Source: a virus
Taxonomy: Duplodnaviria; Caudoviricetes
Reading direction: 5' to 3' (one strand)
DNA: 64,000 nt
Virus record (IMG/VR): IMGVR_UViG_3300032007_000073
Span: 8,402 to 72,401 of that record
A program made the translations under genes and the position numbers. Below the pieces are notes generated by a model, which was given only the letters and a program-made list of their open reading frames with translations, was not told the DNA's origin and did not search any database. Each line of letters opens with the position of its first letter. Positions within the stretch are counted from its first letter, which is position 1. Below, piece by piece: positions 1-64,000 of this stretch.

Positions 1-350
1 GCAAGAGCAAACTTACTATTGAGTTTGAGAGTCCGCTTGATGAAGCTCAAAAAAGTGAAGAAGCTATAAAGCTTAACAGATTTTTAGAAACTATAAGCGG
101 TTATGCTCAAGTGTATCCGGATATGCTTAATATTGTTAATCCTACCAAAACAGCTAAGATTATGGCAAGAAGTATAGGTGTACCGGCAAAAGCACTTTAT
201 TCGGAAGAAGAACTTAAAACAATTGAACAACAAAAGATTGAAGCGGCACAAGCTCAACAGATGCTTGCTGCTATGCCTACGGTTGCAAAGAGTGCAAGCG
301 ATTTAGCTAAAGCGGGTGTTGAAGCTCAAAGCGGAATAAAATTGATTTAA
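1..350 (+). CDS. Podovirus portal / head-to-tail connector, C-terminal part (5'-truncated)
   Basis: Frame is open from position 3 (KSKLTIEFESPLDEAQKSEE...VYPDMLNIVNP...IGVPAKAL...EQQKIEAAQAQQ), so the ORF-track start at 111 is internal. The 'IE(F/Y)xSPL..AQ' motif and Q/A-rich tail match T7 gp8/BPP-1-type portals; it is followed by a Bbp19-like gene. Confidence 0.8.
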   Translation, partial: KSKLTIEFESPLDEAQKSEEAIKLNRFLETISGYAQVYPDMLNIVNPTKTAKIMARSIGVPAKALYSEEELKTIEQQKIEAAQAQQMLAAMPTVAKSASDLAKAGVEAQSGIKLI

Positions 351-370
351 AAATAAAAGGCGGTAAAAAA

Positions 371-673
371 ATGGGTGTATTAACATGGGCTCAAAGATTT
401 GTTTCAAGAGTAAGATGTTATCAAAGAGTATTTAAAAAGGATAATCCGGATGTTAAAGCGGTGTTATGTGATTTAGGGAGAATTGCTCCGGTAGATCCGA
501 CAAGTAAGATTGCAGAGCCGTACGATGCAAATAAAATAAAGCTTTATATTATGATCGGCAGAAGGCAAGTTGTATCTCATATCTTAGCAAAGATAAATAT
601 GACGGAAGAAGAATTAAGCAATATTATTAAGCAAGAACAGTTGAAGCAGCAGCAAGAATCTTTTAAAGGATAA
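371..673 (+). CDS. Bbp19-like small phage protein
   Basis: YQRVF...VKAVLCDL...GRRQVVSHIL pattern; the usual position directly after podovirus portals. Confidence 0.7.
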   Translation: MGVLTWAQRFVSRVRCYQRVFKKDNPDVKAVLCDLGRIAPVDPTSKIAEPYDANKIKLYIMIGRRQVVSHILAKINMTEEELSNIIKQEQLKQQQESFKG

Positions 674-677
674 AAAT

Positions 678-1559
678 ATGACGACAAAATTAAATTTGTA
701 CAACAAAGCTTTAATTAAGTTGGGATGCGAAACAATAAGTGCATTAACGGATAATACAAAGCCGAGAAGATTAATTGATGAAATTTATGACGGGCTTGTT
801 AAAGAAGAATTGCAAAGGCATAATTGGATTTTTGCTAAGAGTAAAGCTGTATTGTTTGCAAATGATATTTTGGAAACGGTTGAAAATGTTGCAGCCGTTG
901 CGGTTAGTGATGTTGTGTTAACTTATAATAAAAATGTGTTGACGATAACTGCTGCAAATACAGGTGTTTCGGGAAACGATATCGTGATAAAAAGCACGAA
1001 TAAAAAAGTTGTTTGCAGCGGTGATACTTTGGTAGGCGGCAGTGCCGACACGAAAGCTGCCGGAAAAATAACTTTTTATACGAATATGGATAAGGGCGAC
1101 AGTATAACTATCGGCAGTACTACTCTTGTTGCCGGAACTGTTTTTGAGATAGGTGTTAGCGGTGTTGGTATGTTGCCGAGAGTTTTTGAGTTGCCGCAAG
1201 ATTTGTTGTTGTTGCTTGAAATTGACGGATTTAATGCATTATCTACTTATCCGTATCAGTACGGTGCTTACAGACAATATGATGTTGCCGGAAGAAATGT
1301 TTATTGTAATAAAGATAATATAACTGTTTTATATACGGCTTCTATAACTGAAGATAAGTTTGATTTTAATTTTGTTAATGTTGTTTGTTGCAGAATTGCT
1401 TATGAGTTGGCGGATGTGTTAACTCAAGACGATCAGAAAAAACAAACATATATGAACGAGTATCTTTTGGCTGTTAAGGATGCCAAGAGAGTTAATGCAA
1501 TACAGTTGCCTAATGCTTCGTTGGGTAGCGGTGTTACAGAAAGAGCAAGAGTGTGGTAA
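678..1559 (+). CDS. Tail tubular protein A / adaptor (T7 gp11-like) with a ~105-aa insertion
   Basis: N-terminus 'LYNKALIKLG..I.AL.D....RRLI..IYD.L..EELQRHNWIFA' and C-terminal 'FELPQDLL...NVVCCRIAYELA.VLT...A.R.NA' are adaptor motifs. Confidence 0.8.
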   Translation: MTTKLNLYNKALIKLGCETISALTDNTKPRRLIDEIYDGLVKEELQRHNWIFAKSKAVLFANDILETVENVAAVAVSDVVLTYNKNVLTITAANTGVSGNDIVIKSTNKKVVCSGDTLVGGSADTKAAGKITFYTNMDKGDSITIGSTTLVAGTVFEIGVSGVGMLPRVFELPQDLLLLLEIDGFNALSTYPYQYGAYRQYDVAGRNVYCNKDNITVLYTASITEDKFDFNFVNVVCCRIAYELADVLTQDDQKKQTYMNEYLLAVKDAKRVNAIQLPNASLGSGVTERARVW

Positions 1560-1569
1560 GGGGGTTTTT

Positions 1570-2133
1570 ATGGCTGGTATGGCTATAGCTTCTACGATAA
1601 TATCTGTTGTAAGTGCTGCTGCTCAAGCGGCAAACAGTTATCAAAATTATCAGGCACAAGCACAAGCTGCAAGTGCAAATGCACAAGTTGCCGAAAGTAA
1701 TGCAAGAAATGTTGCTGTGCAAGGTAATTATGCACAAGATGCAAAACTTCGTGAAGGCAAACAGTTTATATCTAATCAGTATGTTAGAAATTTGGTTAGC
1801 GGTGCGGGCGGTGCCGGTACTACCGGAGATAGAGCTGTTGCCAAAAGTGTTTATAATTTGGAAAACGATCTTAATCTTTTATCTTATAATTTTCAAACAA
1901 AGTCCATAGATTTTTTAAATCAGGCAAAAATGTATAAATACGAAAAAAAAGTTGCTAAAGCTAATGCGGCTAATTCGTTGATAGGCGGCGGATTGGGTGT
2001 TGCAAACAGTATTTTTTCAAGTAAAAGTTTTGACAGAAACAGTGTTAGCGGCACAAGTACAGGTGGTGCTAATGCTGCGGTTAGTCCTCTTAACAACAAT
2101 GTTCCAACAAGAATAAGTTATTTTTATGAATAG
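1570..2133 (+). CDS. Internal virion (ejection) protein, gp14-like
   Basis: ATG at 1570 after a GGGGG RBS. Hydrophobic N-terminus, then A/Q/N-rich 'QAQAASANAQVAESNA' and 'GAGGAGTTG'; typical small podovirus ejection protein. Confidence 0.65.
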   Translation: MAGMAIASTIISVVSAAAQAANSYQNYQAQAQAASANAQVAESNARNVAVQGNYAQDAKLREGKQFISNQYVRNLVSGAGGAGTTGDRAVAKSVYNLENDLNLLSYNFQTKSIDFLNQAKMYKYEKKVAKANAANSLIGGGLGVANSIFSSKSFDRNSVSGTSTGGANAAVSPLNNNVPTRISYFYE

Positions 2134-2141
2134 GTTATAAC

Positions 2142-5100
2142 ATGGCTAAAATCAGAACTATTAAATCAAGTTTTAACGGTGGAGAAATTTCTAAACAGCT
2201 TTTTGGCAGAGTTGATTTAGAGAGTTTTATTGCAAGTAACAAACAAATGAAAAATGTGTTGCCTACGATTTACGGCAGTGCTATGAATCGTGGCGGTACA
2301 GTGTTTGTTAATGATAACATAAAACATTTTTTTGAAACTTTACAGGAAGTTACCGGAGCAACAAACATTAATTGTGTAAGTATTGATTATACTTTCAGCC
2401 GTTATGTGTTCGGGTGCGACAGCGGATATATTGCAAGGTGCGATTTTGATTTTACTAATGTTGTTGTTGTTCAGCTGGTGGATTACAGCAGTAATCCGTT
2501 AGGAGATATTTTGCAAGTTGCTCAAACAGGTTGGTGGAGCGACAGAAACAGCTATAAAGTATCTACTTCTACGGCAAGTTATAATTTTATACCGAGTGTT
2601 GCCGATTGGAGCAGTTATTCTGTTATAAATACTACGGGCGACACAAATGCAGAAAAGTTGTTTGATTTAGAGCCGTATCGTAATCCGTTAAGAAATACGG
2701 GTAAATTGGCGAGTTTTGACGGGTTGGTGTTAAGATTTTTAACTGTAAAAATCGGCGGAAATTTTGATATTACAGACAGTTGTATAATAAGCGAAAACAT
2801 AACTAACGATTTTGACGGATTTAAAATTGATGATAATAATTTTGTTTTAAGAAATGAAACAAATTTGTATTTTTATCATGACGGAAATGCTGTAAGTTTG
2901 GGAATTGAAAGCGGTACTGTTACAGGTGCAAAGTTGCAAGGCGACAATGTTTATGTTTATGTTTACAAGCAGATTAACAGCAAGTATTGTGTTTGCTGCA
3001 ATATTTACAGTTTTACCGGAGAGTTGGTAAAGCAGTTGATACTTGCAAGATATGACAGTGATTTAGGTATAAATAGAGCTATTGTTGTTGATGATAAGGT
3101 TGTTTGTGTTGGTACTGTTAAAAGTGTTTGTATATACAGAAGTACCGTTTTTGAGCTTGATTTTACCGGCACTTGTTTATCTTTGGCAATTAATATCAGT
3201 AACAATGCAATTGTGTTTTGCGATGGCAGTGATAATTTACATATTTTGGACAGTTACAGCTATACCGATACAAACACAAAAAGAGTATTGATACCGTTTA
3301 GAGTTAACAAGCTGATTAATTATGTTGTTGAGTTTGGTAACAATGTAATTAGATTTTATAAAAACAGAGAGTTGGTTAAAGACGGTAACGGCGATGTGTA
3401 TGAGATTGGCAGCCCGTACGGTATAACCGATTTGATTGATGAAGAAGGCAAGTTAAAAATAAGTTATGTGCAAAATGTTGATGTACTTTATATATGCAAC
3501 AAAGATTTTCCGATACAAGTGTTAAAAAGGTATGCAGATGACAGTTGGGTATTAGAAAATTTTATTATTGAAAAAGGTCCGTTTGGTGAAGTAAATACAG
3601 TTAAAAATATGGGTTTAAAATGTTCGGATCATACAGGATTGATAACTGTTGAAACAGAACTTGCTAATTATAATTGTAATGTTGTGCTTTCTTCTTCCGG
3701 TATAAAAGGCTCGTCAAATAGTACAAAATGGTATATTGATGATGTTGAAATTGCATCGTCTAATGAGTATTTGGATTTAAACGAAGCTGCAAGTTTGTTA
3801 TATTCGGTAACAAATCAAGAGTTGATTATTACCGTTCAAGGAAAAGGTTTTTATGTAGAAACTGCTACTGCCGGATATTCCGGTAAAGAATTAAAGTTAA
3901 AAAGATGGACTGCTTTTTATAAAGATACATACAAGGGTACTTTTAATACATCCGGTGCTTCGTTTGATTTGTTTAGTGATAAAGATATAGGTAGGGTAAT
4001 AAGATTAAATTATACGGATTTAGGTACTCAAATGTGGGAATCCGGTAAGAGTATAACTACCGGCGATATAAGAAAAAGCGGTAATAATTATTATGAGGCG
4101 ACATCTTCCGGTACAACCGGACAAATTAAGCCGATACATACAGAAGGTAGTGTTAGTGATGGCGGTGTAACATGGTTGTATTTGCATAGCGGGTATGGTG
4201 TTGGAACTATTTGCGATGTTGTAAGTGCAAGCGAAGTTAAAGTTAATGTTGACGGATATATGCCGGATTTTACAGGTGGTACTTATTTGTGGGAGTTAGG
4301 TATTGTCGGCGGTGGGGTGTATCCGAACTGTTGTGCTTTTTATAAAGAAAGGTTTGTTTTTTCTATATCTACCGATAAAGGTACAAAGATTTGTGCTTCG
4401 TGTGCGGGAGATTATAATAATTTTAGCGATAACAGTTTTGGTGATATTCTTCCGGAAAATGCGATAACTGTTCTTTTGCAGGGTAATCAAGAAAGTATGG
4501 TGTTGTGGATGGCTGCGATGAATAAGTTGTATATAGGTACAGCTTGTGAAGAATTTATTTTTGGTGAGCAAACTATTGCGGAAGTGTTATCACCTACAAA
4601 TGTTATGTGTGTTAAAGTATCTTCGTTAGGATCTGCGGCAATTATGCCGTTACATATTCTTGATGAACTTTTCTTTGTTTCCAATAACGAAAAACAAATT
4701 GCTAATTTTACTTATATTGCCGAGAGAGATAGTTTTAGACCGATGAACATTTCCGTTATGTTTGAGCATTTATTACATAACGGAGTAAAGTGCTGGACCT
4801 ATACTTGTGAGCCGTATAAAACTATTTGGTTTAGCGATAAAGACGGCAATTTAAGAAGTATAAGTTATGATGCGGATAATAAAGTTTGTGCCGGTGCAAG
4901 ACACGATATAGGCGGTAAAGTTGTAAGTTTGGCTGTTATACCTGAGCCAAACGGCAACTATGATGAACTTTGGATGATAGTTGAAAGAGTTGTTGACGGG
5001 CAAACTTGCTATTTTACTGAAAGGTTGAGTTGGGGATTGCCGCAGGAAAATGTTAGTAACGAATATAAAAACAAGTGTCAAATATACAGTGATTGTGCAA

Positions 5101-5570
5101 AGGTGTTTGAGTTTGGAGATAATGTTACGGATGTTTGCGGACTTTACTTTTTGGAAGGTAAGACGGTAAATGTGTTGGTTGACGGAAAAATACAAAATCA
5201 AAAGACGGTTGTTGACGGGACAATTTCGTTAGATGTTGCCGGAAAGGTTATTGTTGTTGGTGTGGGGTATGAGTGGTTGATTGAAACTCTTTATGTAAAT
5301 GTCGGTGCTAATGACGGGACTGCTCAAGGGTTGCCGCAAAGAGTAAGCAAGATAATTGCAAGAGTAATTGATACAAGATATTTTGAAAGTAAAGCTACTG
5401 ACGGAAACAGATATGAAGTTATTTGTGATAAAGATGTTTTGACGGATGATGATTTTGATGTGCATATACCTTCCGACTATTCTAAAGTTATGACACAGTT
5501 TTTTAAGGGTGATAAGCCCGTAAGTTTTTGTATTTTGATGTTGGTTGGAGAGATGAAAACTTATCAATAA
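2142..5570 (+). CDS. Tail tubular protein B / nozzle (T7 gp12-like), enlarged
   Basis: Starts 'KSSFNGGEISKQLFGRVDL'; has 'LIPF...YVVEFGNNVIRFY', 'SYVQNVDVLYI', 'YPNCCAFYKERFVF' and 'SCAGDYNNF' motifs. Confidence 0.85.
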   Translation: MAKIRTIKSSFNGGEISKQLFGRVDLESFIASNKQMKNVLPTIYGSAMNRGGTVFVNDNIKHFFETLQEVTGATNINCVSIDYTFSRYVFGCDSGYIARCDFDFTNVVVVQLVDYSSNPLGDILQVAQTGWWSDRNSYKVSTSTASYNFIPSVADWSSYSVINTTGDTNAEKLFDLEPYRNPLRNTGKLASFDGLVLRFLTVKIGGNFDITDSCIISENITNDFDGFKIDDNNFVLRNETNLYFYHDGNAVSLGIESGTVTGAKLQGDNVYVYVYKQINSKYCVCCNIYSFTGELVKQLILARYDSDLGINRAIVVDDKVVCVGTVKSVCIYRSTVFELDFTGTCLSLAINISNNAIVFCDGSDNLHILDSYSYTDTNTKRVLIPFRVNKLINYVVEFGNNVIRFYKNRELVKDGNGDVYEIGSPYGITDLIDEEGKLKISYVQNVDVLYICNKDFPIQVLKRYADDSWVLENFIIEKGPFGEVNTVKNMGLKCSDHTGLITVETELANYNCNVVLSSSGIKGSSNSTKWYIDDVEIASSNEYLDLNEAASLLYSVTNQELIITVQGKGFYVETATAGYSGKELKLKRWTAFYKDTYKGTFNTSGASFDLFSDKDIGRVIRLNYTDLGTQMWESGKSITTGDIRKSGNNYYEATSSGTTGQIKPIHTEGSVSDGGVTWLYLHSGYGVGTICDVVSASEVKVNVDGYMPDFTGGTYLWELGIVGGGVYPNCCAFYKERFVFSISTDKGTKICASCAGDYNNFSDNSFGDILPENAITVLLQGNQESMVLWMAAMNKLYIGTACEEFIFGEQTIAEVLSPTNVMCVKVSSLGSAAIMPLHILDELFFVSNNEKQIANFTYIAERDSFRPMNISVMFEHLLHNGVKCWTYTCEPYKTIWFSDKDGNLRSISYDADNKVCAGARHDIGGKVVSLAVIPEPNGNYDELWMIVERVVDGQTCYFTERLSWGLPQENVSNEYKNKCQIYSDCAKVFEFGDNVTDVCGLYFLEGKTVNVLVDGKIQNQKTVVDGTISLDVAGKVIVVGVGYEWLIETLYVNVGANDGTAQGLPQRVSKIIARVIDTRYFESKATDGNRYEVICDKDVLTDDDFDVHIPSDYSKVMTQFFKGDKPVSFCILMLVGEMKTYQ

Positions 5571-5593
5571 TTTAACGGCAAAGGAGTTTTGAA

Positions 5594-7318
5594 ATGGCTA
5601 ATGATATATATAAAAAAAATGTGTTACCGGATGGCACTGTAAGACCTATTGCAAATGCTGCAAGAGTGATTAATCCGCTTGAGCCGTTAAATGATACCGC
5701 AAGAATAGCAAATAATTTAGCTGTGCAATATAAAAAAATTGAGCTTGAAAATGAGCAAGTAAAACAGGATCAGTTTGAAAGTGATTTAAAATTAAAGCAA
5801 GCAGAGTTTAACAATAAACTTGAAACTATAACTAATCAGCAAGAGTTTGATAATGCTATAGCAGATTTTAACAGCAGTATAGATACTTTAGGAGTTAAAG
5901 TTTTAGGAAGCGAAGATGCTTATAACAAGTGGAGCAACGAGAAAGGAAGAAACTATAAAGCACTTGCGAATTTGGGTTATAAAAGTATTTGGGCTAAAAA
6001 TTTACAGAAACAAAATTATGCAAATATGGGTACTACCGTAAGTAATTATGCGACACTTGCGGCACTTGATCCGGCAAGAAAAGATGCTTTTGTGAAACAA
6101 GCCGAAATGGATATAAACAGTAAAGCTCTTACTACGGAACAGAAACTATCTTTACAAAACAAATTTAAAGTGGAGCTTGCCAATGCGGAAGTTGTGAGAG
6201 ATATAAAAAATAATCCGGGCGATGCTTTGGATAAGTTAAAAGCAATAACTAAAGATAAAGACGGAAATGTTAAAAACGATAAACCTACTTATTATGACGG
6301 GTTAACTCCGGTGCAGCGACAAAAGTATATTGAGCAGGCAAAAAAAGAGTATGATGCACAATTAAATACTTATCAAGATAAAAAAATAAATAAGTTAAAA
6401 GAACAGTTTAATTATTTGTATCAAAACGAAGGATATGACAAAGCTTATCAATTTATGCAAGATTGTGTTAAAAATGTTGACGATATAGTTAAACAAGAAA
6501 ATATAACACAAGAGCAATTTCAATCTTTTAGATCTTATGCTTCCGGTATGCTTAAAGAACAGAACTCTGATTATGCACAAGTTAACCAAAACAAGTTTGG
6601 CGATTTGCAAGTTGAGATGAAAAAGTTGGGTATTAAGTTAGATAAGAAAGGTGATTATGTTGTTGATTTTAAAGAAAAAAGAAATGTTGAAAGTATTGTT
6701 GAAACGATAAACAATATTGATGAAGGTATAAAAGACGGCAGTTATTATACCAATCAAAAAGCCGTAACTAAAATGAGAAGTGCTTTGAGAGTTGCTTTAG
6801 GCGATATGGTAGATAAAAAAGTTAGATTGAGAGATACGGATGTTGAAGGACAAACAACTTTTGGCGGTATTTTGAAAGGTAACGGAATAGGCGGCGATAC
6901 AACTGCAAGCGAGTATATTGCAGATAGTATTTTGAAAGTTTTAAAAAACAAAACAAACAGAAATAATTTTAATTTAGACAAAATTTCCGTTACGGATAAG
7001 GGCGAAATATTTGAGCATGTGTATAAAACAGCTATGGCTGCCGGAATAGATTTGAAATCTTATTATATAAACGATAAAGAAAAGATAGATAAAATAACAC
7101 AATCTGTGTTTAATTGGATGATACAAAACAGATTTGATGTGCCGCAAAAAGAGTATGGTGCTGTTATAGGTGACGGCAATATGTATGATACAAATAATCC
7201 TAAAGCTAACAGTAATATTGGAAAAAAATCTGTAGGGTACGGAAATTATGTTATTGACCGTAACGGTGTTATAAAACTTACAGATAATAACGGTAATATT
7301 ATTGATGAGGTAAGGTAA
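5594..7318 (+). CDS. Internal virion (ejection) protein, gp15-like position
   Basis: 574 aa, predicted alpha-helical/coiled-coil, between the nozzle and the largest virion gene. Confidence 0.55.
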   Translation: MANDIYKKNVLPDGTVRPIANAARVINPLEPLNDTARIANNLAVQYKKIELENEQVKQDQFESDLKLKQAEFNNKLETITNQQEFDNAIADFNSSIDTLGVKVLGSEDAYNKWSNEKGRNYKALANLGYKSIWAKNLQKQNYANMGTTVSNYATLAALDPARKDAFVKQAEMDINSKALTTEQKLSLQNKFKVELANAEVVRDIKNNPGDALDKLKAITKDKDGNVKNDKPTYYDGLTPVQRQKYIEQAKKEYDAQLNTYQDKKINKLKEQFNYLYQNEGYDKAYQFMQDCVKNVDDIVKQENITQEQFQSFRSYASGMLKEQNSDYAQVNQNKFGDLQVEMKKLGIKLDKKGDYVVDFKEKRNVESIVETINNIDEGIKDGSYYTNQKAVTKMRSALRVALGDMVDKKVRLRDTDVEGQTTFGGILKGNGIGGDTTASEYIADSILKVLKNKTNRNNFNLDKISVTDKGEIFEHVYKTAMAAGIDLKSYYINDKEKIDKITQSVFNWMIQNRFDVPQKEYGAVIGDGNMYDTNNPKANSNIGKKSVGYGNYVIDRNGVIKLTDNNGNIIDEVR

Positions 7319-51066: not shown

Positions 51067-51077
51067 GGAGATTAAAA

Positions 51078-52247: not shown

Positions 52248-52257
52248 GAGGTTTAAT

Positions 52258-52728: not shown

Positions 52729-52745
52729 AATAATAGGAGGGCAAA

Positions 52746-53296
52746 ATGGAAGTATTTAAAAGTGTAGAAGAAGTAGATATTCAAGGACATAAATTAGAAG
52801 TTCATTTAGGAACTTTTATTGAAAGTGAAAAATTGTTCACGGAAGTTATTAAGTGTTACAAAGAGGGCAAAGAAGGAGTTGAGCTTCTTACGGTAGATAG
52901 TGTAAAAGAAGCTCTTTTACCTTTGTTAAAGAAAAGTTTTTTTGATAACCAAGAAATAAAAGATTGGTCTTTTTTTAATGATATTAAAATGAGGGGATTT
53001 TATGTTCCTATAAGTTTAAAAGTATTGGACCTGAATACTGCCCCTTTTATGACAAGTCCTTTGTAATTCTTAAATCAAGTTTTATAAAGGACGATGATTC
53101 TTACAGTCCAAAAATAGAAGTTAGAGATACGGTAGCTTTAGCAATATTCAGAATAGTAAAATTAGGATATGGAACATTAGAGCAAGTAAAAAAGTTTACT
53201 GCAAGAGAAGTGATACAAATATTGAAGTACGAAGATTTTATATCAAACTATGAAAGAATAGTAGTAGAAAGACAAAAAAACGATTATAGAGGTTAA
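52746..53296 (+). CDS. Tail assembly chaperone (52746-53066) with a predicted -1 frameshift extension to 53296
   Basis: Slippery heptamer C CCT TTT at 53042-53048; the -1 frame stays open to TAA 53294-96 and has no ATG of its own. Confidence 0.7.
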
Positions 53297-53298
53297 AA

Positions 53299-54639
53299 AT
53301 GGGTCCTGAAGTAAAAGGCAAGATAGCAATAGATGCAGATTTCTCACAAGCCGAAAAAAGATTAGCAGACTTTGTTCGTGCGATAGAGAGAAATGCAAAA
53401 TTAAAAAAATCTTCTATAAACAGAATGACCCAGCCTTTACTTAAAGATATTTTTGATAAATGGCAAAGGCACAAAACATACGATTCTAATTATAGAGAAT
53501 ATTTAAAAGAAAGAACAAAGTCGTATCTTACAAGCAAAGCTCGTATGGGAGCTTTTGGAGAAGAATATAAAAATCTTTCTAAAGAAGCAAAGCAAACATT
53601 TATAGAAAATATGTTAAAAGATTTTTTGCCTTATATGTCAAAGACTATTAAAGAAGAAGGATTAGAAAGAAAAAGACAAAAAATACAACTTAAAAGAGAC
53701 CAAGAAGAAAGAGCAAGAAAATTTATGAGTGAAGAAAAATGGAACACAAAAATGAATCTTCTTCACGATAAAGCTCTTAAAGAAAACAAAGCCTTCGATG
53801 AAAAGAAAAAGAAATTAGAACTTAAAGAACAACAAAAAGAGTTCAAAGAAAAAGAAAAAAATCGTAAGAAATTGTTTAATGCTTTGCTTTTTAAATGGGG
53901 AAAACTTGGTATAGCTGGTATGATAGCAGGTCAAGCTATCAGATATATTTCGAAAGGTGTTGGTTTAGCAAATTCAGTTGCACAAACTTCTTTAGGATAT
54001 GAAAGAACAATTGAAGGAGGAGCTTCTGAAGGTGGTTTTTTTGGTGGTAGCTTAGCTGCGATGCAAAGAGCTGGTATTTCTGCTCAAACTTATGGAAGTT
54101 GGAAAAGAAGTATGCTTGGCAAAGTTGGAGCTATCAAACTCGGTATGGGAAATGCTGCTCCGTTTGCGATGTTAGGTGTAAGTGCTTTAGACAAAATGGA
54201 CGATATAGAACTTGAAATCGAGAAAAGACTACAAAGACTTCCTGCGGAAACTTCTTGGGCTTTAGGTAGCCAAATGGGATTATCTTATGATTTGTGGGCT
54301 GCTATGTATAGAGGCGAAATAGATAGAACAAAACCTGGTTATGATGAAGATGCAATAAAGGCTTGGGCAGAAGCCGCTAAAAATATAAACGAATTTATTA
54401 CAGCCATAAAAGTTCCAATGTATAATGTACTTGGATACTTAGCAAAAATGTTGACAACAAAAGAAGGATGGGCTGGACTTGCGACAGGAGGATTAGGTTC
54501 AAGTATGTATTTGCCAGGCTCATCTGCACAAAGAGCTATTGAAATGCTTATAAAGATAGATAATGAAGGAAAAGCTAAAGTTGAAACAAATAATATTGAA
54601 AATGAAAATATAAGAACTTTTATTGAACTTAATCAATAG
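53299..54639 (+). CDS. Tape measure protein (short, 446 aa)
   Basis: Follows the chaperone; helical, with G/A-rich hydrophobic stretches. Confidence 0.75.
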   Translation: MGPEVKGKIAIDADFSQAEKRLADFVRAIERNAKLKKSSINRMTQPLLKDIFDKWQRHKTYDSNYREYLKERTKSYLTSKARMGAFGEEYKNLSKEAKQTFIENMLKDFLPYMSKTIKEEGLERKRQKIQLKRDQEERARKFMSEEKWNTKMNLLHDKALKENKAFDEKKKKLELKEQQKEFKEKEKNRKKLFNALLFKWGKLGIAGMIAGQAIRYISKGVGLANSVAQTSLGYERTIEGGASEGGFFGGSLAAMQRAGISAQTYGSWKRSMLGKVGAIKLGMGNAAPFAMLGVSALDKMDDIELEIEKRLQRLPAETSWALGSQMGLSYDLWAAMYRGEIDRTKPGYDEDAIKAWAEAAKNINEFITAIKVPMYNVLGYLAKMLTTKEGWAGLATGGLGSSMYLPGSSAQRAIEMLIKIDNEGKAKVETNNIENENIRTFIELNQ

Positions 54640-54647
54640 GAGAAAAT

Positions 54648-57157
54648 ATGGACTTAAGTCAATTAAAACTAAACTCTAAAATAGATGTTAATCAAAAGAT
54701 TGGTAATTGGAATCTTGGAACTATTAACCAAATAACAGGATTGGCGAACAATGCTATAAGTTCCTTACAAGCACTTATATTCCCGCAAGAAGGATATAAT
54801 GAAGATATAAATCCTACTGACGAAACAATAGTAGGTATAACTGCAAATCTAAAAGAAGGTGGAAATAAGGGCTTTATTTTTGATTTAAAAGAAGATTACA
54901 GAATTAATCTTACTTCCGATATAACAGACCATTATGTAGAAGAAAATATAGCAATTCAAGACCATATAGCTTTAAAACCTATAATACTTGAAGTCTCAGG
55001 AAAGATATCCGAAAAAACACTCATAACTCCTTATGATGAAGAAGAGAATACAGATTCTATACAAAAGGCTTTTAATAAGGTAAACTCTTATTATAATAGA
55101 ATGGGGTCGTTATCAACCTTCGTTCCAAACATAATGAACCAAGCTAAAGATATATTAAATACGGCTCAAAGTGCTTATAACACATATAAGAGTTTGTCGA
55201 ATTTTATAAAATCTTCAAAGGGAGACGATAAACCTCAAACAAGACAATCTAAAATCGTTTCTATGTTTAGAGACTATTGGATGAACAGAACACAGTTTAC
55301 GATAGTTACTCCTTTTTGTATTTTAGATAGTATGTATATATTAGATTTCTCTGCTAACCAACCTAAGAACACAAAGTATGTTACAGAGATAAAAATAAAA
55401 TTCAAACATTTAAGAAAAGCAGAAGTTAAATACACATATACAAAAGTTAAATGTCAAGGATTAGCAATAGAAGAGAATAAGAAACAAGTTACCGAGTTGC
55501 CTCCTGAAATAGTAGGACAATCTGCATTTCCTCCGATAGCAACAGAAGAAAAGATGGCAGGAGATTTTGTTAAACAAACTCTTAATGTAGTAAAACAATC
55601 TGTAATTACGACAGAAGAGAAGGTTTCTTCGATATTTAAAAGTTTACAATCTTCTCCTGTTTCAAAGATTACAGAAGTTACGAATATCGCAAATACTGAT
55701 ACTTTGTATAATACACAGACTCTTATGAATAATACAAGCCTTTTACCTAAAAACATACAAATGGGTATAGGTTTTTAAGGAGTTTTTATGCAACAGATAG
55801 AATTGACAGAACAAGGAACATACAATATAATAAACTCAAAACAAGAGAACTATCAATTGGTATTTAATTATAACCAAGCAGTACAAGGATGGTTTTTAGA
55901 TTTAGTTTCGGAAAACTTTAAGATATACGGAATAAGAGTTACAAGTGTTCCGAATATATTGAAACAATGGTCTGATAAAATAGGTTTTGGAGTCGCCGTA
56001 AAGTGCGAACAAGATAGTGAACCTATGTTTTTTGAAGATTTTACTACTAAAAGAGCAAGAGTATATTTGTTAGAGCCAGACGATTTAATTACACAAAAGG
56101 TATTATGGAAAAATATAAATTTAATAGACAATATTTAATTTCTATACAGTTTGGAGAACATCCCGTAACAAAGCAAAAAACACTTGCTAACGGAGAAACT
56201 ATCGATGCTATTGAATTTATAGAGGGTACTCACGAACTTATTATAAGACCTCAGTTTACGATAAATTTAACAATTGACAGAAGTATATATGCTACTACAA
56301 ATAAAATGAGTTTGGATATATATAATTTGTCTAAAGATACGAGGCATAATATATACTACGATGCTATATTACACGGAGCAGTATATAAGAAAATAATTAT
56401 ATATGCAGGGTATAGTGAAGAAGATTCTACTAAGTATGATAAAAAAATACTCACAGGAAAGAATATAGAGAAAACTATAAACGGTATGCCTTTAGTTTTT
56501 TACGGAAGGATACAAAGAGCTTACTCGTATAGACAAGGCACTAATATGATTACTCATATTGAGGCTTTTGATTTGCCTGAAAAAAATGAAGTTGATTTGT
56601 CAACCGAATTTAAAGCAGGAACAACTGAAAAAGAAGTCTTTAAAAGATTAGCCAAAGATATGGGAATAAACGAAGAAAACTTAAAAATAAGTAAAGATTT
56701 TAAATTTAAGTTTACAAGAGATAAATCTTTTACAAAAAAAAGTACTTGGGATGTTGTGAATGATATAGTTAAATCAATGAATGATTTAATTAAACAACAA
56801 CAGAATGACAATGCTCCTTTATATAGAATGTATTTTGATTATCCTGATTTATGTGTATTGAAAGATAACGAATATATTAAAAGTAAAGATATAACTATAA
56901 CCTCTAAAACAGGTCTTTTAAGTACTCCGATAAGACAATGGGCTACTGTAAAGTTTGTTTCTTTATTTGAGCCTTCTTTTAGATGTGGAGGAAGTATTTA
57001 TTTAGATTCGAGAACTACTGAGTATGGTATAGGTGGAAGATTAAAAGTTGTAGGATTTAAGCATAGTGGAACAATATCTCCTGCCGTATGTGATACTTTA
57101 AGAACTGAATTTACTTGTTTTATGGGAATAGATAAATTGGTGGCAATAAATGATTGA
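54648..57157 (+). CDS. Baseplate centre genes: Dit-like (54648-55778), plug (55788-56138), hub (56105-57157)
   Basis: 'SDITDHYVEEN..IQDHI..KP'; 'GWFLDL'; hub with 'GLLSTP' and 'F.CGG'; conserved order. Confidence 0.72.
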
Positions 57158-57746
57158 TTATGAAACTATGGGAAATATCAACCAAAAGAATGTTCTTGAA
57201 AGAAATAAAGCAAATCTTTTAAAGAGCTTCAATTGTGTTAAGGTTGGAAAGATAAAGGCTTTCTATGCAAACAAACAAACTGCCGATATTAAGATAGACA
57301 ATTATCCTTTATTGTCAGGAGTACCTGTAAGTTTTATAAGTGGAGCAAACTTCAGTATTCAAGTTCCTATACAAGAAGGAGATGACTGTATAGTTTTGTT
57401 TTGTGATGGAGACCTTGATAATTGGGTTGAGGGAAAAGGTTATAAACCTGCTTTTTCTCAAGATATGCACGGATTAAATGGTGCGGTAGCTCTTCTTGGA
57501 ATAAAGAACATCTTGACAAAAATCGATAATTATATTACAAATGGAGTAAGAATTAAATATAAAAATAGTGAGATTGAACTTAGCGATAGTGGTATTGTTA
57601 TAAATGGGAATGTTACAGTAAACGGAACGATTAAATCTTCAGGAGAAATAACAGGAACAGGAGAAGCAGGAGAGATAAAACTTACACAACATACTCACGG
57701 TGGAGTTACGAGTGGAAGCAGTAACACATCTGTTCCTAATCCGTAG
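57150..57746 (+). CDS. Baseplate spike (Gp138/gpV-like)
   Basis: 'VPVSF..G', 'GDDCIVLFCD.DLDNW', 'MHGLNGAVAL', and terminal 'LTQHTHGGV.SG' HxH tip. Confidence 0.85.
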   Translation: MIDYETMGNINQKNVLERNKANLLKSFNCVKVGKIKAFYANKQTADIKIDNYPLLSGVPVSFISGANFSIQVPIQEGDDCIVLFCDGDLDNWVEGKGYKPAFSQDMHGLNGAVALLGIKNILTKIDNYITNGVRIKYKNSEIELSDSGIVINGNVTVNGTIKSSGEITGTGEAGEIKLTQHTHGGVTSGSSNTSVPNP

Positions 57747-57755
57747 GAGTAAAAA

Positions 57756-59979
57756 ATGTTTGTAAAAATGAGAAATATAGACAAAAATGGCGATTGGTGT
57801 TTTGGAAACAATCTTCAAGATTATGGAGATAATTTAGTTTCTACAATCAACAATATAAAGACAAGATTAAAGTCTATTAAATATGATTGTTTCTTTGATT
57901 TGACCGCTGGTATAGATTGGTTTAATATTCTTGGTAACAGAGGACAATATACTAAGGATATAGTAGAAATAAATGTTAGACTTTGTATTTTGCAATCTTT
58001 GTATGTAAAAGAAATAATAAGTTTGAATATAATAGAAAATGAAGATAGAAGTTTGATTTTAGAATATACAGTAGATACGATTTTTGGTACAATAACAGAT
58101 AGTACGGAAGTAGGGGGATAATAATGCCAAACATATTAGATTCTAACGGATTGCAAGTAAATAGTGTAACAGAGTTATTAAACAATTTAATAAATTCGTT
58201 TAACACAATTTATGGAGCAAATATTAATTTAGACCAAAATACTCCTGATGCACAATTGATAAATGTAATTTCTCAATTAATGGTTAGTTATGGAGAGTTG
58301 CTTCAAGATATAAATGCTTCTTTTGACCCGGACCAAGCAGTAGGAGTTATATTAGACCAAAGAGTTAAACTTAACGGAATAACAAGAAAACAAGGCACTA
58401 AAACGATTACAAATATAAAGGTAACTTTTAACGGTTCGGCGGTTTTAAAAGGTCAAGACCTTTATCCGATAGAAGAATGTTTTAAAGTTTCTGATAACTC
58501 AGGAAATGCTCTTGTTCCGGTAACAACAACTTCAGGAGTAGATGGAAACGAATTGACTATACCTTTTGTTGCTATAAATTACGGTGCATTAAATTTTACA
58601 GAAGGAACAATTACAAATATAGATACTCCAATTGCAGGAGTTGAAAGTGTAACCAATGAAGCAACTTTGACTGAAAATATAGGAACAGATGAAGAAAGTG
58701 ATTCTTCTTTGAGAATAAGAAGAACTGCATCGGCAGAGCAAATTGGGAATTTTGGAACGATTGAAACATTAAAGCAAGCATTATACAATATTTCTCCTGA
58801 TATACAATATGTTGGAGTTGAAGAAAATAAAGGAAACTCTGAAGATGTTAATCAAATACCTGCTCACGGAATTTGGATAGTAATTAAAAATGCAGTATCA
58901 GACGGAGAAACAAATAAGAAGATAGCAGAAACTATATTGTATTATAGAATAGCAGGAACTCCAATGAGACATTTAGGAGACAGTTCTTCAAGCTCAGGAG
59001 AAGAGATAACTGAAATTTCTTATTCTCTTCAAAGACCTGACGAAGATAATTTCGTAGCATATTGGACTTTAGCAAAAGAAAAACCTATATATTGTAGAGT
59101 AACTTGTTTTATATTGGACGAAACTTTGAATCAAGGTTTAATTAAATCAATTATAAGTGATAATACAAAACCTCAAGTAAAACAAACTTTGAGTGTTACT
59201 TCTATAATGAAAGCATTATCAGATGGAGTTGAGAATATAGTTATTACTTCTTTAGAGATATCGGAAGATAATTCTAATTGGATAACATTTATAAACCCAA
59301 ATCCTGACGAATTTATAAGAATACCTGTGGCAAATATCACAGTAACGGAGTATAATCAATAATGGAAAATTTAAAAAAATATTTTACCAACTTGTTGATA
59401 TTACAATATAAAAACAAACCGAAAGCTAAAGCTACAATTGAGGCTTTAGTTACGGCAATGTTTTCAGATACTAACGGAAATATATTTCCAACACAAATAC
59501 AAAATGCTTATAATTTAGATACTGCTATTGGAAAACAATTAGATGTTATAGGAAAATATGTTGGTTACGACAGAGTTCTTCCTATACCAATTGATAACAC
59601 TTTTAAATATGCAGAATACGATGGAAGTATTAACCCGTCTGAAGGGTATAGCGAATATACAGAATCTAAAAAGACTTATCCGTATGCAGAGTATAGATAT
59701 TCAAGTTATCAATATTACAACATTTCTGATGAAACATATAGAAAGATATTAAAAATGATTATCTCTCTTAAGAACAAACCTCTTTCGTTAGGTTTTATAG
59801 ACCAAGCTCTTTCTGTTTTTGATAATAAGATATATGTAGTTGAAAATGATAAAAACTTAGAGTATCATATAAGTAGTGATTTATATGAGGTTTCAAATAA
59901 CCAAGATATCTTAAATGTTTTTTTTAATAAATATTTCCCAAGACCTATGGGATGTTCTTTAACGGTCGTAAGGGATTAA
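57756..59979 (+). CDS. Baseplate wedge genes: gp25-like (57756-58121), baseplate J-like (58124-59362), DUF2612 (59362-59979)
   Basis: 'RN.DKNGDW.FG'; 'DPDQAVG..LD...KLNGITRK', 'ESDSSLR.RR'; 'LILQYKNKPKAKATI...AIGKQLD.IG'. Confidence 0.82.
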
Positions 59980-59991
59980 AAGGAGTAAAAT

Positions 59992-61230
59992 ATGGCTTTA
60001 GATAGAGTATATCAAAAGATTTTCGGTAAAAATGCAAATTTATCTGATTTAGGAGTGGTTGGTTCTCATAATAATAGTAACGACCAATATTCTAAGGATG
60101 TAGGAATATTACAAAGTTTAGCAAATTGGGAAACGGGTATGAGAGCAATTGTAACTTCTTCTGATGCTCCTTATCTTCAAGATCACAATTCTTTATTTTA
60201 TGTGATAACTTCTCAGTTAGCTTACTTGTTTCAAGCCGGTATAGCAGAGTGGAACTCTCAAACCGAATATTTTTCAAACAGAAGTATTGTTTTGAAAAAC
60301 GGAAAGATATATATAGCAATAACAGATAACACAAATATAGAGCCCGAAGTTACTGCCGGTTGGGCTACTTATTGGAAAACATTGAATAATTGGGGTTCTG
60401 TTATAGGAAATATATATAATCAAACAGATTTATGGAACATTCTATTAAAAGGAATGTCTTTTGATAGTGCCGTTTCTACTGCAATATCAGGATACCCAAA
60501 AGGAACAGTTCTTAAATTCTCTCAAGGATTAAATCATTATGATATAAAGGCATTGAAAAATTCTCCAAATGAGCCTGTTGAAGATGTTTTAGGCAACACA
60601 GGAAATATTTATTTCGCAAGAAAGATTGAACAGATGTATAGAATAGTAGCAACACAAGGCGATTTACCGACTCCAAGTGTAGATACACAAGGAAAATGGT
60701 GTTTCGTTACTTCCGAAAACTCGTTTTATATTGGAGGTGTTGACGGAGGAGGAAATTATAATTGGACTTCTATGGGAAACGACCTTTATGCTATAATTGG
60801 AGCAGATGTATTTACTTATGATAATATAACATTTTACAAACAAAATAGCAGTTATCAATGGGTAGATTTGGGATTATCTTACGATTGGTTATACTTCTCG
60901 CAAAGAGCAGTAATTAAAGAAGAAAAAATAACAGGTGTAAGATATAGATTATGGAGTAATGGTTGGATAGAACAATATGGAATACAAGTGTTTAATGACA
61001 CACAATATTCAACAAATTTTGATGTTGCTTTTGCAATAGAAATGGAAGATACAACTTACGATGAACATTATACTTGCGAAAGAGAAAGTAAATCAGGAGC
61101 GGTAAATTTCGGTGGTGGTATAAGATTAAAAACAACGACAGGAATGAATATACAAATATTAAGAGTCGGCTCGGATGATAGATGCAAATCTGTTTCTTGG
61201 AAAATAGAGGGATTTAAAGCATTAGCATAG
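59992..61230 (+). CDS. Proximal tail fibre protein
   Basis: 'LAYLFQAGIAEWNSQTEYF', 'GYPKG'; C-terminal 'YRLWSNGWIEQYG' gp53-like domain. Confidence 0.78.
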   Translation: MALDRVYQKIFGKNANLSDLGVVGSHNNSNDQYSKDVGILQSLANWETGMRAIVTSSDAPYLQDHNSLFYVITSQLAYLFQAGIAEWNSQTEYFSNRSIVLKNGKIYIAITDNTNIEPEVTAGWATYWKTLNNWGSVIGNIYNQTDLWNILLKGMSFDSAVSTAISGYPKGTVLKFSQGLNHYDIKALKNSPNEPVEDVLGNTGNIYFARKIEQMYRIVATQGDLPTPSVDTQGKWCFVTSENSFYIGGVDGGGNYNWTSMGNDLYAIIGADVFTYDNITFYKQNSSYQWVDLGLSYDWLYFSQRAVIKEEKITGVRYRLWSNGWIEQYGIQVFNDTQYSTNFDVAFAIEMEDTTYDEHYTCERESKSGAVNFGGGIRLKTTTGMNIQILRVGSDDRCKSVSWKIEGFKALA

Positions 61231-61240
61231 GAGGAAGAAA

Positions 61241-61516
61241 ATGGCGAACATTGGACAGTTTAAAGTAGGAAAAGTATGGAAAAAGTTGGACGAAGTAACG
61301 GGATATTCTTTTGTGGCAGATAGTTCTTATACTATCCAAAATAAAGGATATCAACCGTTATATCTTTGTATTAAAGCAGATGCTCCAACGACAGACAAAA
61401 TTGGTTTTATTATTCAACAAAACGAAAAGGTCGGTTATACTTGTGAAAGTGGCAATTTTCTTTGGATAAGGTCAGAGAAAAATGTTGCAGAATTTAATGT
61501 TGCAGAGGGGGTATAA
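61241..61516 (+). CDS. Small tail-fibre-associated protein
   Basis: 91 aa; positional counterpart of 14878-15168. Confidence 0.55.
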   Translation: MANIGQFKVGKVWKKLDEVTGYSFVADSSYTIQNKGYQPLYLCIKADAPTTDKIGFIIQQNEKVGYTCESGNFLWIRSEKNVAEFNVAEGV

Positions 61517-61518
61517 CT

Positions 61519-62517
61519 ATGCCTTTACATTTTGAAAATATGGGATTTGGTGGCTCAGGTGGTGGCGGAGGAACAACCGGCAAAATAAAAATATTAAATG
61601 TTGTTGAAAATGGAACTGTAACGAGAGAAGGCACAAAATATAGTGGTTTTGCAAACGATAAATATTTGCAAATAGGCAACAAAGTTGATGGAGATATAAT
61701 TGCATTATCTAATGAAATTAAAGATTTCGGTGCAATGATTACAACAGCAAATAGTTTTGAATGTGTTTTTTTATGCAATTATAAGACAAAAACAAAACAA
61801 TATTTATTCGGCGAAAGTGGCAGTTGGTCGTCAAAAATAGGAATAGAAAATGGAGATGTTGTTCTGCAACTTAATTTTGAGGGAGGTCAAAGTTTAGATT
61901 GGCTTATAATTGAAAGAGGAAGTTACACATTTACCGAAAATGCCGATTATTATTTTAAATTTGCTTTTGACGGAACTGCTTACACTTTATCAATCAAAGG
62001 GAAAAACGAAACGAGCTATACAATAGTAATAACAATTGCGGATAGCACAAAATTTTCTTCAGGCAGAGAGTGGATTATAGGTTATGTAGATACTCAAGAC
62101 ACGGATAACGAATGGGGAAGTTATATTGATATGGAAGGTTGCTCAATTAAATCTAACGGCGATTTTTGGTGGAAAGGTGTAGAAGAAATAAATGCGACAG
62201 GTGATATAGATTTGCCTTCGTATCTCAAGAAACCTACAATAGTAACAGACGGAGATGCGACAGGTTTGGCAGTAGAAGGAAATACGATATACAAGTTTGG
62301 AACTGCTTTGACTTCATTAACGATATCAAGTGTAGAAACAAGTGATTATGAAAGCATAATATATTTTACAACAGGAGCAGGAACGATAACATTGTCCGTT
62401 CCAAATACATTGAGATGGGGTGGTGGCTCTGCACCTGAACTTGAGAGCGATACCGTCTATTGTATCGCAATTCGTAACGGACTTGCAGAGATAGATAATT
62501 TTGGCAGTGCTTCATAA
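61519..62517 (+). CDS. Tail fibre/RBP with a lectin-like domain and the shared '...RNGLAEIDNFGSAS' C-terminal domain
   Basis: G-rich linker, one 'SGF...YL' beta domain, C-terminus homologous to 15182-15517. Confidence 0.65.
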   Translation: MPLHFENMGFGGSGGGGGTTGKIKILNVVENGTVTREGTKYSGFANDKYLQIGNKVDGDIIALSNEIKDFGAMITTANSFECVFLCNYKTKTKQYLFGESGSWSSKIGIENGDVVLQLNFEGGQSLDWLIIERGSYTFTENADYYFKFAFDGTAYTLSIKGKNETSYTIVITIADSTKFSSGREWIIGYVDTQDTDNEWGSYIDMEGCSIKSNGDFWWKGVEEINATGDIDLPSYLKKPTIVTDGDATGLAVEGNTIYKFGTALTSLTISSVETSDYESIIYFTTGAGTITLSVPNTLRWGGGSAPELESDTVYCIAIRNGLAEIDNFGSAS

Positions 62518-62529
62518 AGGGGGTGGCTT

Positions 62530-63618
62530 ATGTCAATGTTCTATGAACTTATGATGAAGAAAAAGACACAAGTAATGTATGCAACGATTAAGGGAACATT
62601 AACCGAAAATGACGGTGTTTTTAGTGGGTTTAGTAGTAGTAATTATTTGGCTTTGCAAGAAAATCTTACTTTTTCTCAGAAAACTGAAATAACTTTGTGT
62701 CTAACAATGCCAAGTTCTTCTTTGACACAAATAAATACATTTTTGATGTTTGGAACGAATTATATCTATATTGCTACAAATAGAAAAATATCTGCACAGT
62801 TAAGAAAAAGCGGAAGTAATCATTGGTTAGACGGAGCAACTGCTTTAACTTTGGGAGAAAAATATTGGATAAAGATTATAAATGATGTAGCCAATAATAC
62901 TTTTGAATTGCTAATATCAACTGATGGAATAAATTATACAAGAGAATTATACTCTGACACATACATATTATCCGAAGATTTGGGAACTTCTAATATTGGA
63001 GCAAGAACAACAACTTATTTCACAGGAAGTATAAGCCTACCCAATTCCTACATCAAGCTCGGCTCAACGAAATACAATCTCCAAGCAGTAGTAGGCTACA
63101 CGATAGTCGGCAGTCCTACGATTGTTGACGGTGTGGTTAGTGGGTTTAATAATTCAAACTACTTAAAAATTGATAATGCAATTATTTTATCTCAAGCAGA
63201 CGATTGGGAAATTAAAATCAAAATTGGCACAAATACAGGTTCTTATATTCTCGGCTCAAATTTACAAAACATAATAACTTGTAGTATAGGAACATCATCA
63301 TTGTATTTATCTTCTAATGGCTCATCTTGGGATATTGCAAGTGGTGTCGGTTTAAGTTCAAGAATACCTGAAAATAGTTATCTTAGATTAAGATTTACGG
63401 GAACACATTATATTTTGGATTATTCAACAGATAATGTTACTTGGACAACTTGTGCAGATGTAACTTCGTCAAGCAAATTGTCAAGTTCATTGTCTTATTT
63501 AAGAATTGGAAATTGGGGTGGTGGTGGAGACACAACTTTGTTTACAGGTACAATAGATTTAAAAGAAACATACATAAAAATCAACAACAAATTATGGTTT
63601 AACGGACAACAAGGATAA
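62530..63618 (+). CDS. Receptor-binding protein with two tandem lectin (ConA/LamG-like) repeats
   Basis: Starts MSMFYELMMKKK. Repeats 'GTLTENDGVFSGFSSSNYL' and 'GSPTIVDGVVSGFNNSNYL', each ending near 'FTG(S/T)I.L..(S/T)YIK'. Confidence 0.65.
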   Translation: MSMFYELMMKKKTQVMYATIKGTLTENDGVFSGFSSSNYLALQENLTFSQKTEITLCLTMPSSSLTQINTFLMFGTNYIYIATNRKISAQLRKSGSNHWLDGATALTLGEKYWIKIINDVANNTFELLISTDGINYTRELYSDTYILSEDLGTSNIGARTTTYFTGSISLPNSYIKLGSTKYNLQAVVGYTIVGSPTIVDGVVSGFNNSNYLKIDNAIILSQADDWEIKIKIGTNTGSYILGSNLQNIITCSIGTSSLYLSSNGSSWDIASGVGLSSRIPENSYLRLRFTGTHYILDYSTDNVTWTTCADVTSSSKLSSSLSYLRIGNWGGGGDTTLFTGTIDLKETYIKINNKLWFNGQQG

Positions 63619-63627
63619 GGGGGAAAT

Positions 63628-64000
63628 ATGTTTGGAAAACTTATAGACGGAAGATTAGTAGTTGCAGGAAGAATAGTAAAAGACGGAAACACAACGATAA
63701 CTAACCCAACGGAAGAAAAGTTAAAAGAGTTAGGTTATAAGACGATAGAATATACAGAAAAGCCGACATTTAACAAAGAAGAAGAAAAGTTAGTTGAAAG
63801 ATATACCGAGCAAGAAGATGTTATAGTTGTTGATTATGATATAGTAGCACTAACGACAGAAGAACACAATGCAATTATTCAAGCCGAAATTGTTGCAGAA
63901 GAAAACAAGATTACACCGAGAAATATTCGTAATGCAATTAAGGGAGATACTTTTGCACTTGATAAGATAACGGAAATTGAAAGCAATATTTATCAGTTAA
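63628..64000 (+). CDS. Tail fibre assembly/chaperone-like protein (3'-truncated), homologue of 16137-16544
   Basis: MFGKLIDGRLVVAGRIVKDGNTTITNPTEEKL...; patchy then complete identity to the first copy. Confidence 0.75.
   Translation, partial: MFGKLIDGRLVVAGRIVKDGNTTITNPTEEKLKELGYKTIEYTEKPTFNKEEEKLVERYTEQEDVIVVDYDIVALTTEEHNAIIQAEIVAEENKITPRNIRNAIKGDTFALDKITEIESNIYQL
63874..64000 (+). repeat. 127-bp exact direct repeat, copy 2
   Basis: Identical to 16380-16506 up to the window edge. Confidence 0.95.

Follow-up and report, generated by a model that had tools for sequence, protein, structure and literature searches.

Unrelated tailed phages exchange tail-fibre and lysis modules, as described by comparisons of the tail-fibre genes of P2, Mu, P1 and lambda and by Hendrix's model of mosaicism. 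Similar regions in co-existing viruses are also a cause of chimeric contigs in metagenome assemblies, and among large contigs metaSPAdes makes more of these than MEGAHIT (Roux et al. 2017, PMC5610896). Here, we analysed a stretch of 64,000 nucleotides (the window), which corresponds to C1:8402-72401, where C1 is the single-contig, 72,401-bp record IMGVR_UViG_3300032007_000073; positions are window coordinates unless marked C1. Our results indicate that C1 is very probably an assembler mis-join, in which part of the genome of a temperate podovirus (P, about 37 kb) is linked to a complete, contractile-tailed myovirus of 47,494 bp (M). As in the chimeric contigs of Roux et al. 2017 (PeerJ 5:e3817), a highly similar region that is longer than reads bridge is found in co-existing viruses, an arm of one genome is joined to the other, and the terminal overlap has the length of the largest k (127). 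In contrast to those chimeras, C1 follows a rho-shaped path, that is, a stem plus a full circle, and its overlap runs from the end to an internal site. Since the overlap is not end-to-end, the record escapes circularity checks, and it is filed in IMG/VR as linear and 100% complete.

The same locus resembles the known cases of mosaic exchange in that a variable receptor-binding gene lies between conserved arms (44 bp on the left; chaperone-like and lysis genes on the right), the arms are common to phages of different tail types, and identity decays on either side of an identical core. There is no difference in principle from those cases; the lineages and the host here have not been cultured, GenBank holds no phage related to them at the DNA level, and a megablast comparison with GenBank phages gave no match to either the P arm or the M arm. 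The comparison genomes were one podovirus (G001) and two myoviruses (G002 and G003), of which G001 and G002 are sibling IMG/VR records. The comparison contigs were L097 (JGI 3300028886), L102 (JGI 3300026539), and L098 and L099 (Logan, SRR11060116 and SRR11060117). Contigs of the ENA assembly ERZ27256887 were known from their gene tables, not from their DNA.

Two phage types in one record

The window part of the P arm (1-16379, plus strand) is collinear with the podovirus G001 and is assigned by PHROG matches. It begins within the 3′ end of a T7-type portal gene (to 350; phrog_332, PF12236), which is followed on the plus strand by a tail-tubular-A-like gene (678-1559), an internal virion protein (1480-2133) and a tail-tubular-B-like gene (2142-5570), then by a 574-aa protein, a polyvalent ejection protein of 2511 aa (7318-14853) and small fibre-region genes. 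Besides the portal, matches to phrog_394, phrog_376 and phrog_418 and a weak T7_gp14 match identify a podovirus-type virion, and no sheath or tape-measure matches were found within the P arm. The 8.4 kb of C1 upstream of the window encode a small terminase, a large terminase, a major head protein and most of the T7-type portal. The earlier note had counted only one terminase and major-capsid set, which is true inside the window only, as the second set lies in these upstream 8.4 kb; with terS, terL, capsid and T7-type portal there besides M's own genes, C1 carries two full packaging and head sets. In total, P contributes 24.8 kb to C1 (terS, terL, capsid, T7-type portal, tail and ejection proteins). 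The podovirus genome G001 (37,102 bp, DTR, CheckV 100% complete) closes alone with a 127-bp overlap and is collinear with C1:74-26713 at 80-88% nucleotide identity, with a terL that is 98% identical in amino acids; its integrase and early region, about 8-10 kb, are absent from C1. In addition, the Logan contig L103 is 100% identical to window positions -4406 to 10269. A host search with the podovirus terL against 185,579 species genomes returned remote matches only, at 25-35% identity.

Downstream of the lysis membrane genes, the M path encodes an endolysin (Peptidase_M15_3; 18301-18747, plus strand), which is different from the 138-aa endolysin of the podovirus path. The early and replication block (18744-44027, minus strand) is collinear with the closed genome G002 and with G003, and it encodes a replication initiator, two DNA methyltransferases, RusA, RecT, an exonuclease and a ParB-like protein, together with the large terminase (41637-43091) and a probable small terminase (42958-43686), also on the minus strand. 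The virion module on the plus strand (44805-63618) comprises a portal, protease, decoration protein, major capsid protein (47840-48916), connectors, sheath (51078-52247; phrog_205), baseplate (56105-59979) and fibres (59992-63618). A myovirus-type virion is evident from the phrog_205 sheath and from matches to phrog_196, phrog_11, phrog_120 and phrog_6, and an identical ENA contig has precomputed Pfam matches to Sheath_initiator and Phage_Wedge1. A search of IMG/VR for related loci with the baseplate wedge protein found no relative, and no integrase was recognisable in M. A myovirus scaffold, L112, shares 97% nucleotide identity over 54278-60982. The myovirus genome G002 (47,471 bp, or 47,344 bp without the overlap; DTR, 100% complete) closes alone with a 127-bp overlap, and both G002 and G003 (46,529 bp) are collinear with the loop, including the order from fibres through lysis genes to the minus-strand block.

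The two complete-looking tail systems described in the earlier note were thus confirmed, with a short-tail module at 1-16.4 kb and a contractile-tail module at 44.8-63.6 kb. Each of the component genomes exists alone as a closed, 100% complete record (37.1 kb for G001 and 47.5 kb for G002).

The junction repeat and the shared cassette

The last 127 bases of the window (63874-64000) are identical to 16380-16506, both on the plus strand, and the preceding base differs (T at 16379, A at 63873). The internal copy is the first k-mer common to both incoming arms, and the terminal copy is the contig end, as the window stops at C1 72401 of 72,401. The exact repeat with a mismatch directly before it, as well as a closed loop of 47,494 bp (63873-16380+1), had been noticed from the letters of the window and are borne out by sequence comparison. 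The maximum k of SPAdes is 127. The end overlaps of the sibling records G001 and G002 are also exactly 127 bases each, so a k=127 assembly fits; the terminal overlap of C1 matches an internal site over the presumed largest k of the assembler. A real direct terminal repeat was rejected, because the repeat runs end-to-internal rather than end-to-end and the start of the contig is unique. Exact-pattern scans of viral and metagenome contigs, from which C1 itself was excluded, returned no match to the junction k-mer.

The 127-mer does not stand alone: it is where two homologous 135-aa genes, 88% identical over 389 bp and with the same ribosome-binding site at their start, become identical towards the 3′ end. 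Two different incoming arms thus converge at the junction, with 88% identity upstream of the shared k-mer. The P copy of this chaperone-like gene (135 aa; 16137-16544, plus strand) contains the junction and has 87% amino-acid identity to the M copy (63628-64000, plus strand), which is cut by the contig end and is present in full, at 136 aa, in L098. An AF2 model of the 135-aa protein has a pLDDT of 85, and its best BFVD matches are annotated as 'phage tail assembly chaperone' or DUF4376, at E-values of 5e-5 to 2e-4 and a TM-score of only about 0.5. The protein had no Pfam or PHROG match, and a PDB fold search returned nothing at E <= 0.001. Like the DUF4376-like tail (fibre) assembly chaperones, the junction gene directly follows a receptor-binding-like gene and its best fold matches are so named; it differs from them in having no sequence-family or PDB match. 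It is plausibly a tail-fibre assembly chaperone or a chaperone-like protein.

Upstream of this gene, a left homology arm of 44 bp is identical in P (15482-15525) and M (62482-62525), both on the plus strand; it spans the end of the fibre gene upstream together with a ribosome-binding site, and lies in a patch of 115 bp with 83% identity between P and M. The receptor-binding-like gene that follows the left arm has the same 12-aa N-terminus in both phages. In P this gene starts with an ATG at 15531 (15531-16127, plus strand) and encodes 198 aa, as in the ENA gene call, and its body is unrelated to the 362-aa gene of M. An exact-protein look-up returned nothing for a 208-aa reading of the receptor-binding-like gene, for the 148-aa endolysin or for the 135-aa P copy; for the 208-aa and 148-aa readings, both TTG-started, the null may reflect differently called starts.

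Downstream of the junction lies the shared segment S (16380-17872, plus strand), which comprises the 3′ third of the chaperone-like gene as well as lysis genes for membrane proteins of 77, 104, 97 and 116/99 aa with TM segments. Along S, the podovirus-exit path (L097) does not differ from the myovirus path (C1, L098 and L099). The two paths are identical over at least 1,493 bp, and the first difference in L097 is at 17873. In the decay zone that follows (17873-18220, plus strand), L097 has 18 SNPs and a 42-bp deletion, and all similarity is lost at about 18220, within a small CxxC gene.

Exits from the shared segment and rival readings

L097, L102 and one ENA contig begin exactly at 16380. In the tail of L097 lies an endolysin 91% identical to that of G001, and L108 extends the L097-type tail into an integrase 97% identical to that of G001. 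According to its gene table, the ENA contig of 6,418 bp runs from 16380 into a 138-aa endolysin, a 346-aa integrase and an HTH repressor. A second exit therefore leaves the shared stretch after 17872-18220 into podovirus-type, G001-like genes. The single lysis set of the earlier note is accordingly a by-product of the mis-join, as the podovirus has its own endolysin on an exit path which C1 did not follow. For the myovirus path, two independent assemblies (L098 and L099) run from 63435/63748-64000 into 16507-18183 with 0 differences. In the ENA assembly ERZ27256887 (k=141), P and M are not joined: the P arm forms a contig of 24,317 bp and M one of 46,647 bp, and both stop exactly 141 nt into the shared stretch. 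A search for a single contig with P arm, cassette and P exit found none; the link from P arm through cassette to P exit is suggested by synteny with G001 and by graph logic.

We propose that a rho-shaped path through a k=127 de Bruijn graph joined two phages of one sample. P and M would share an identical stretch of about 1.0-1.5 kb from 16380 through the holin and lysis membrane genes. The assembler would enter this shared edge from the P arm, take the M exit instead of the P exit at its far end, round the whole M circle and stop where the M arm re-enters the already used junction vertex, which would leave the 127-base terminal overlap. Such is the exact graph path that we infer for the assembler. 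The P genome of the source sample probably has more than 127 bp of the identical cassette; L097 may come from a different sample than C1. The earlier note had ranked as most likely a graph join between two phages that co-occur and have the sequence from 16380 on in common, and all tests that were run agree with this reading, including the independent closure of G001 and G002, the closure of M with 0 differences and the podovirus-type exit.

The gene order of C1 is also that which a single crossover in the cassette would give, and a physical co-integrate or tandem could place P arm, cassette, M, cassette and P exit on one molecule, for example with M inserted in a P prophage. The cassette has the length and identity needed for homologous recombination, P-type phages have the integrase that is not recognisable in M, and short reads cannot separate a real molecule of this kind from a graph artefact. 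However, in other samples P-type and M-type genomes each form a closed circle of their own, the k=141 assembly has P and M on different contigs, contigs run from the M arm through the cassette to the M exit at 100% identity, and C1 is without host DNA or att sites. In addition, a molecule of 84 kb would probably exceed the capsid capacity suggested by relatives of 37 or 47 kb. We consider such a molecule improbable, and still less probable the event in which the integrase-less M recombined via the cassette into the temperate P genome to give a co-integrate or tandem prophage. If true, the shared cassette would be a homology landing pad, and one phage would ride the lysogeny machinery of another.

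That C1 is a correct linear stretch stopping at the repeat, with another copy of the lysis region as its true continuation after 64000, is very improbable. C1 alone does show just 127 identical bases at its end, and nothing lies beyond them in the record, but in L098 and L099 the M arm is followed by 16507-18183 without a single difference, the same circular order is found in G002 and G003, and the 47,494-bp loop matches G002 (47,344 bp without its overlap). C1 simply stopping at a paralogue was likewise rejected, as L098 and L099 run into the same sequence. The 'exciting alternative' of the earlier note was one element that encodes both podoviral and contractile virions, sharing one lysis, replication and packaging arm. 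Both virion modules are indeed on one record, and the window shows one terminase and one capsid gene; this premise arose because the window cut off the rest of C1. With the upstream 8.4 kb included, terminase, major capsid gene and portal each occur twice on C1 instead of as one shared set. Moreover, each module is part of a genome type that is complete although it lacks the other, and a second exit from the shared segment, which the earlier note had named together with different read depths as evidence against a dual virion, was found in L097, L108 and the 6,418-bp ENA contig and leads to the podovirus's own endolysin, integrase and repressor. Two tail morphotypes on one element are contradicted by gene content, and this alternative is effectively refuted, with a probability close to nil.

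Meaning of the probable mis-join and of the shared DNA

Read as a mis-join of P to M, the record is really about two-thirds of one phage and the whole of another, and its importance lies mainly in data quality. Taxonomy, genome-size statistics, gene-sharing networks and host prediction would all be distorted by its use in unaltered form. An overlap of length k between the contig end and an internal site is a simple, searchable signature of such errors, which standard end-to-end repeat checks miss.

The identity of the two paths along S supports the proposal of a recent exchange of DNA between a podovirus and a myovirus, and the cassette was probably exchanged by recombination in a common host. 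In a second case, a myovirus scaffold and an integrase phage of 33 kb have 2,725 bp in common at 99.2% identity. Taken together, a cassette of receptor-binding, chaperone-like and holin/lysis genes moves at 99-100% identity among short-tailed, contractile-tailed and other phages of one uncultured community, and the underlying biology is a clean example of well-known phage mosaicism, not a new process.

Two routes through the shared segment

The contig ends where the window ends (bases 8402-72401 of a single-contig record of 72,401 bp), and its last 127 bases (63874-64000) are identical to 16380-16506, preceded by A at 63873 and by T at 16379. This confirms the terminal repeat and preceding mismatch described in the earlier note. 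The loop spans 47,494 bp (16380 to 63873), and no repeat of the contig start was found anywhere in the contig. Two homologous genes, one at 16137-16544 and the other from 63628 onward, are identical in their 3′ part, and this part is the 127-mer; the genes have the same ribosome-binding site at the start and share 88% identity over 389 bp. Another 44 identical bases form a second, short arm at 15482-15525 and at 62482-62525, and the gene that follows it opens with the same 12 residues in both phages.

Other assemblies were compared at this junction. Two Logan contigs from two other runs (L098 and L099), which cover the myovirus arm from 63435 or 63748 to 64000, carry on across the closure point into 16507-18183 with zero differences, which shows that the closure of the 47,494-bp myovirus circle proposed from the sequence is real. 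Two JGI contigs, L097 and L102, have their first base exactly at 16380. L102 corresponds to 16380-17426, while L097 is identical to our contig up to 17872; beyond that it differs by 18 SNPs and a 42-bp deletion, and no similarity is left after 18220. The endolysin encoded in the tail of L097 shares 91% identity with that of G001, a closed podovirus relative. This tail is overlapped at 99.7% by a further metagenome contig, L108, which extends the path to an integrase that matches the G001 integrase at 97%. Thus, the shared segment has the second exit that had been looked for, into a G001-type endolysin and integrase.

In the independent ENA assembly ERZ27256887 (k=141), for which only gene tables were used, the podovirus arm is a contig of 24,317 bp and the myovirus a contig of 46,647 bp, and both of them extend into the shared stretch for exactly 141 nt and end there. 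A third contig, of 6,418 bp, has its first base at 16380; it encodes the same lysis genes and then an endolysin of 138 aa, an integrase of 346 aa and an HTH repressor. The lengths of the contigs in this assembly suggest exact sharing up to about 17508. In the Logan run SRR9008756, both phages are present at 100% identity.

Two packaging and head gene sets on one contig

The small terminase, large terminase and major head protein (phrog_3437) of the podovirus, with most of its T7-type portal (phrog_332), lie in the 8.4 kb of the contig that precede the window. Inside the window, the podovirus arm encodes tail-tubular-A-like and tail-tubular-B-like proteins, internal virion proteins and a 2511-aa ejection protein (7318-14853). 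This last protein shares 89% identity with a G001 ORF of 2720 aa, and the precomputed Pfam hits on an identical ENA gene include an ART-PolyVal domain (PF18760). The loop contains a full myovirus gene set: its own large terminase (41637-43091, minus strand), portal, protease and major capsid, the sheath, baseplate and fibres, an M15 endolysin (18301-18747), and a block for recombination and replication in the lambdoid style. Between 18744 and 44027, a ParB-like protein (30966-31721), RecT with an exonuclease, RusA and two DNA methyltransferases are encoded. No recognisable integrase was found in the loop, and the myovirus may be either virulent or, in lysogeny, plasmid-like. Since the upstream podovirus set adds to that of the myovirus, the contig holds two terminases, two capsid genes and two portals. 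The earlier note had counted a single terminase and major-capsid set because the second lies beyond its reader's view; the premise of one element with two tails arose because the window cut off the upstream part of the contig.

Origin of the join

Each genome type is also found by itself. G001 (IMG/VR record 3300028832_000056; 37,102 bp, end overlap of exactly 127 bp, CheckV completeness 100%) is collinear with contig bases 74-26713 at 80-88% nucleotide identity, and its TerL is 98% identical at the amino acid level; a region of about 8-10 kb, which includes a tyrosine integrase gene, separates its endolysin from terS and has no counterpart in this contig. Two myovirus relatives, G002 (47,471 bp, end overlap of exactly 127 bp, 100% complete) and G003 (46,529 bp), are collinear with the loop, including the passage from the fibres through the lysis genes to the minus-strand block. 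A physical co-integrate of the two phages, formed by recombination in the cassette, is the sole exciting reading left, and we consider it very improbable. The architecture is an assembly artefact built on a genuine but ordinary mosaic cassette.

Most likely, the artefact arose in a k=127 graph, in which the vertex at 16380 would be entered by both the podovirus arm and the myovirus arm, and the shared edge would be too long for read pairs to bridge. At its far end the path would have left by the myovirus exit, circled the myovirus and halted on re-entering the junction vertex. Such assemblers are known to produce chimeric assemblies from co-existing viruses with similar regions, and among large contigs the chimera rate is higher in metaSPAdes than in MEGAHIT (PMC5610896); the proposed course agrees with both this behaviour and this difference in rate. 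IMG/VR files the whole record as linear with a CheckV completeness of 100%, a listing that deserves flagging, and checks for end repeats miss an end-to-internal overlap of length k.

The shared cassette and its exchange

The shared stretch starts with the 3′ third of the 135-aa gene (16137-16544) and continues with small membrane-protein genes (77, 104 and 97 aa) and a 116-aa protein (17614-17964) with an N-terminal signal and Cys and a C-terminal TM segment. The 135-aa protein has no match in Pfam or PHROG; the best matches of its AlphaFold model (pLDDT 85) are viral proteins whose annotation is tail assembly chaperone or DUF4376, and its very conserved family comprises 429 homologues on contigs of 33-56 kb. 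An Elusimicrobia MAG includes a 2-kb contig on which one homologue (P0089, 76% identity) is annotated, a weak lead to the host. The 116-aa frame is almost fully overlapped by a 99-aa ORF in a different frame (17610-17909), which is the choice of public gene calls, and TM segments are found in both. Homologues of the 116-aa frame occur in G001, G002 and G003 (40-54%), and the unimolecular-spanin-like layout of this frame would suggest a diderm host.

Just 5′ of the endolysin, a gene for a small CxxC...C protein (18149-18328) has its first 19 residues in common between the podovirus and myovirus paths; the remainder differs, and similarity stops here. The M15 endolysin itself has no homologue in G001, G002 or G003, and G001 matches the 285 bp just before it (18028-18312) at 84% identity. 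By sequence comparison, this border looks like another mosaic joint.

For the cassette genes 3′ of the junction, the myovirus G003 is the nearer relative and the podovirus G001 the more distant one (80% versus 31% for the 97-aa protein), which hints that the podovirus lineage was the recipient. A second case was found in other samples, in L112, a 47.7-kb myovirus scaffold that is 97% identical to our myovirus across the baseplate. All that it has in common with L110 and L111, two 33-kb integrase phages with a different structural module, is a 2,725-bp cassette at 99.2% identity (L110:8556-11277, L112:8553-11277), comprising the fibre tip, a 371-aa RBP-like gene, the 135-aa gene and holin-like genes. 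The sharing of the cassette is classic modular exchange between conserved arms.
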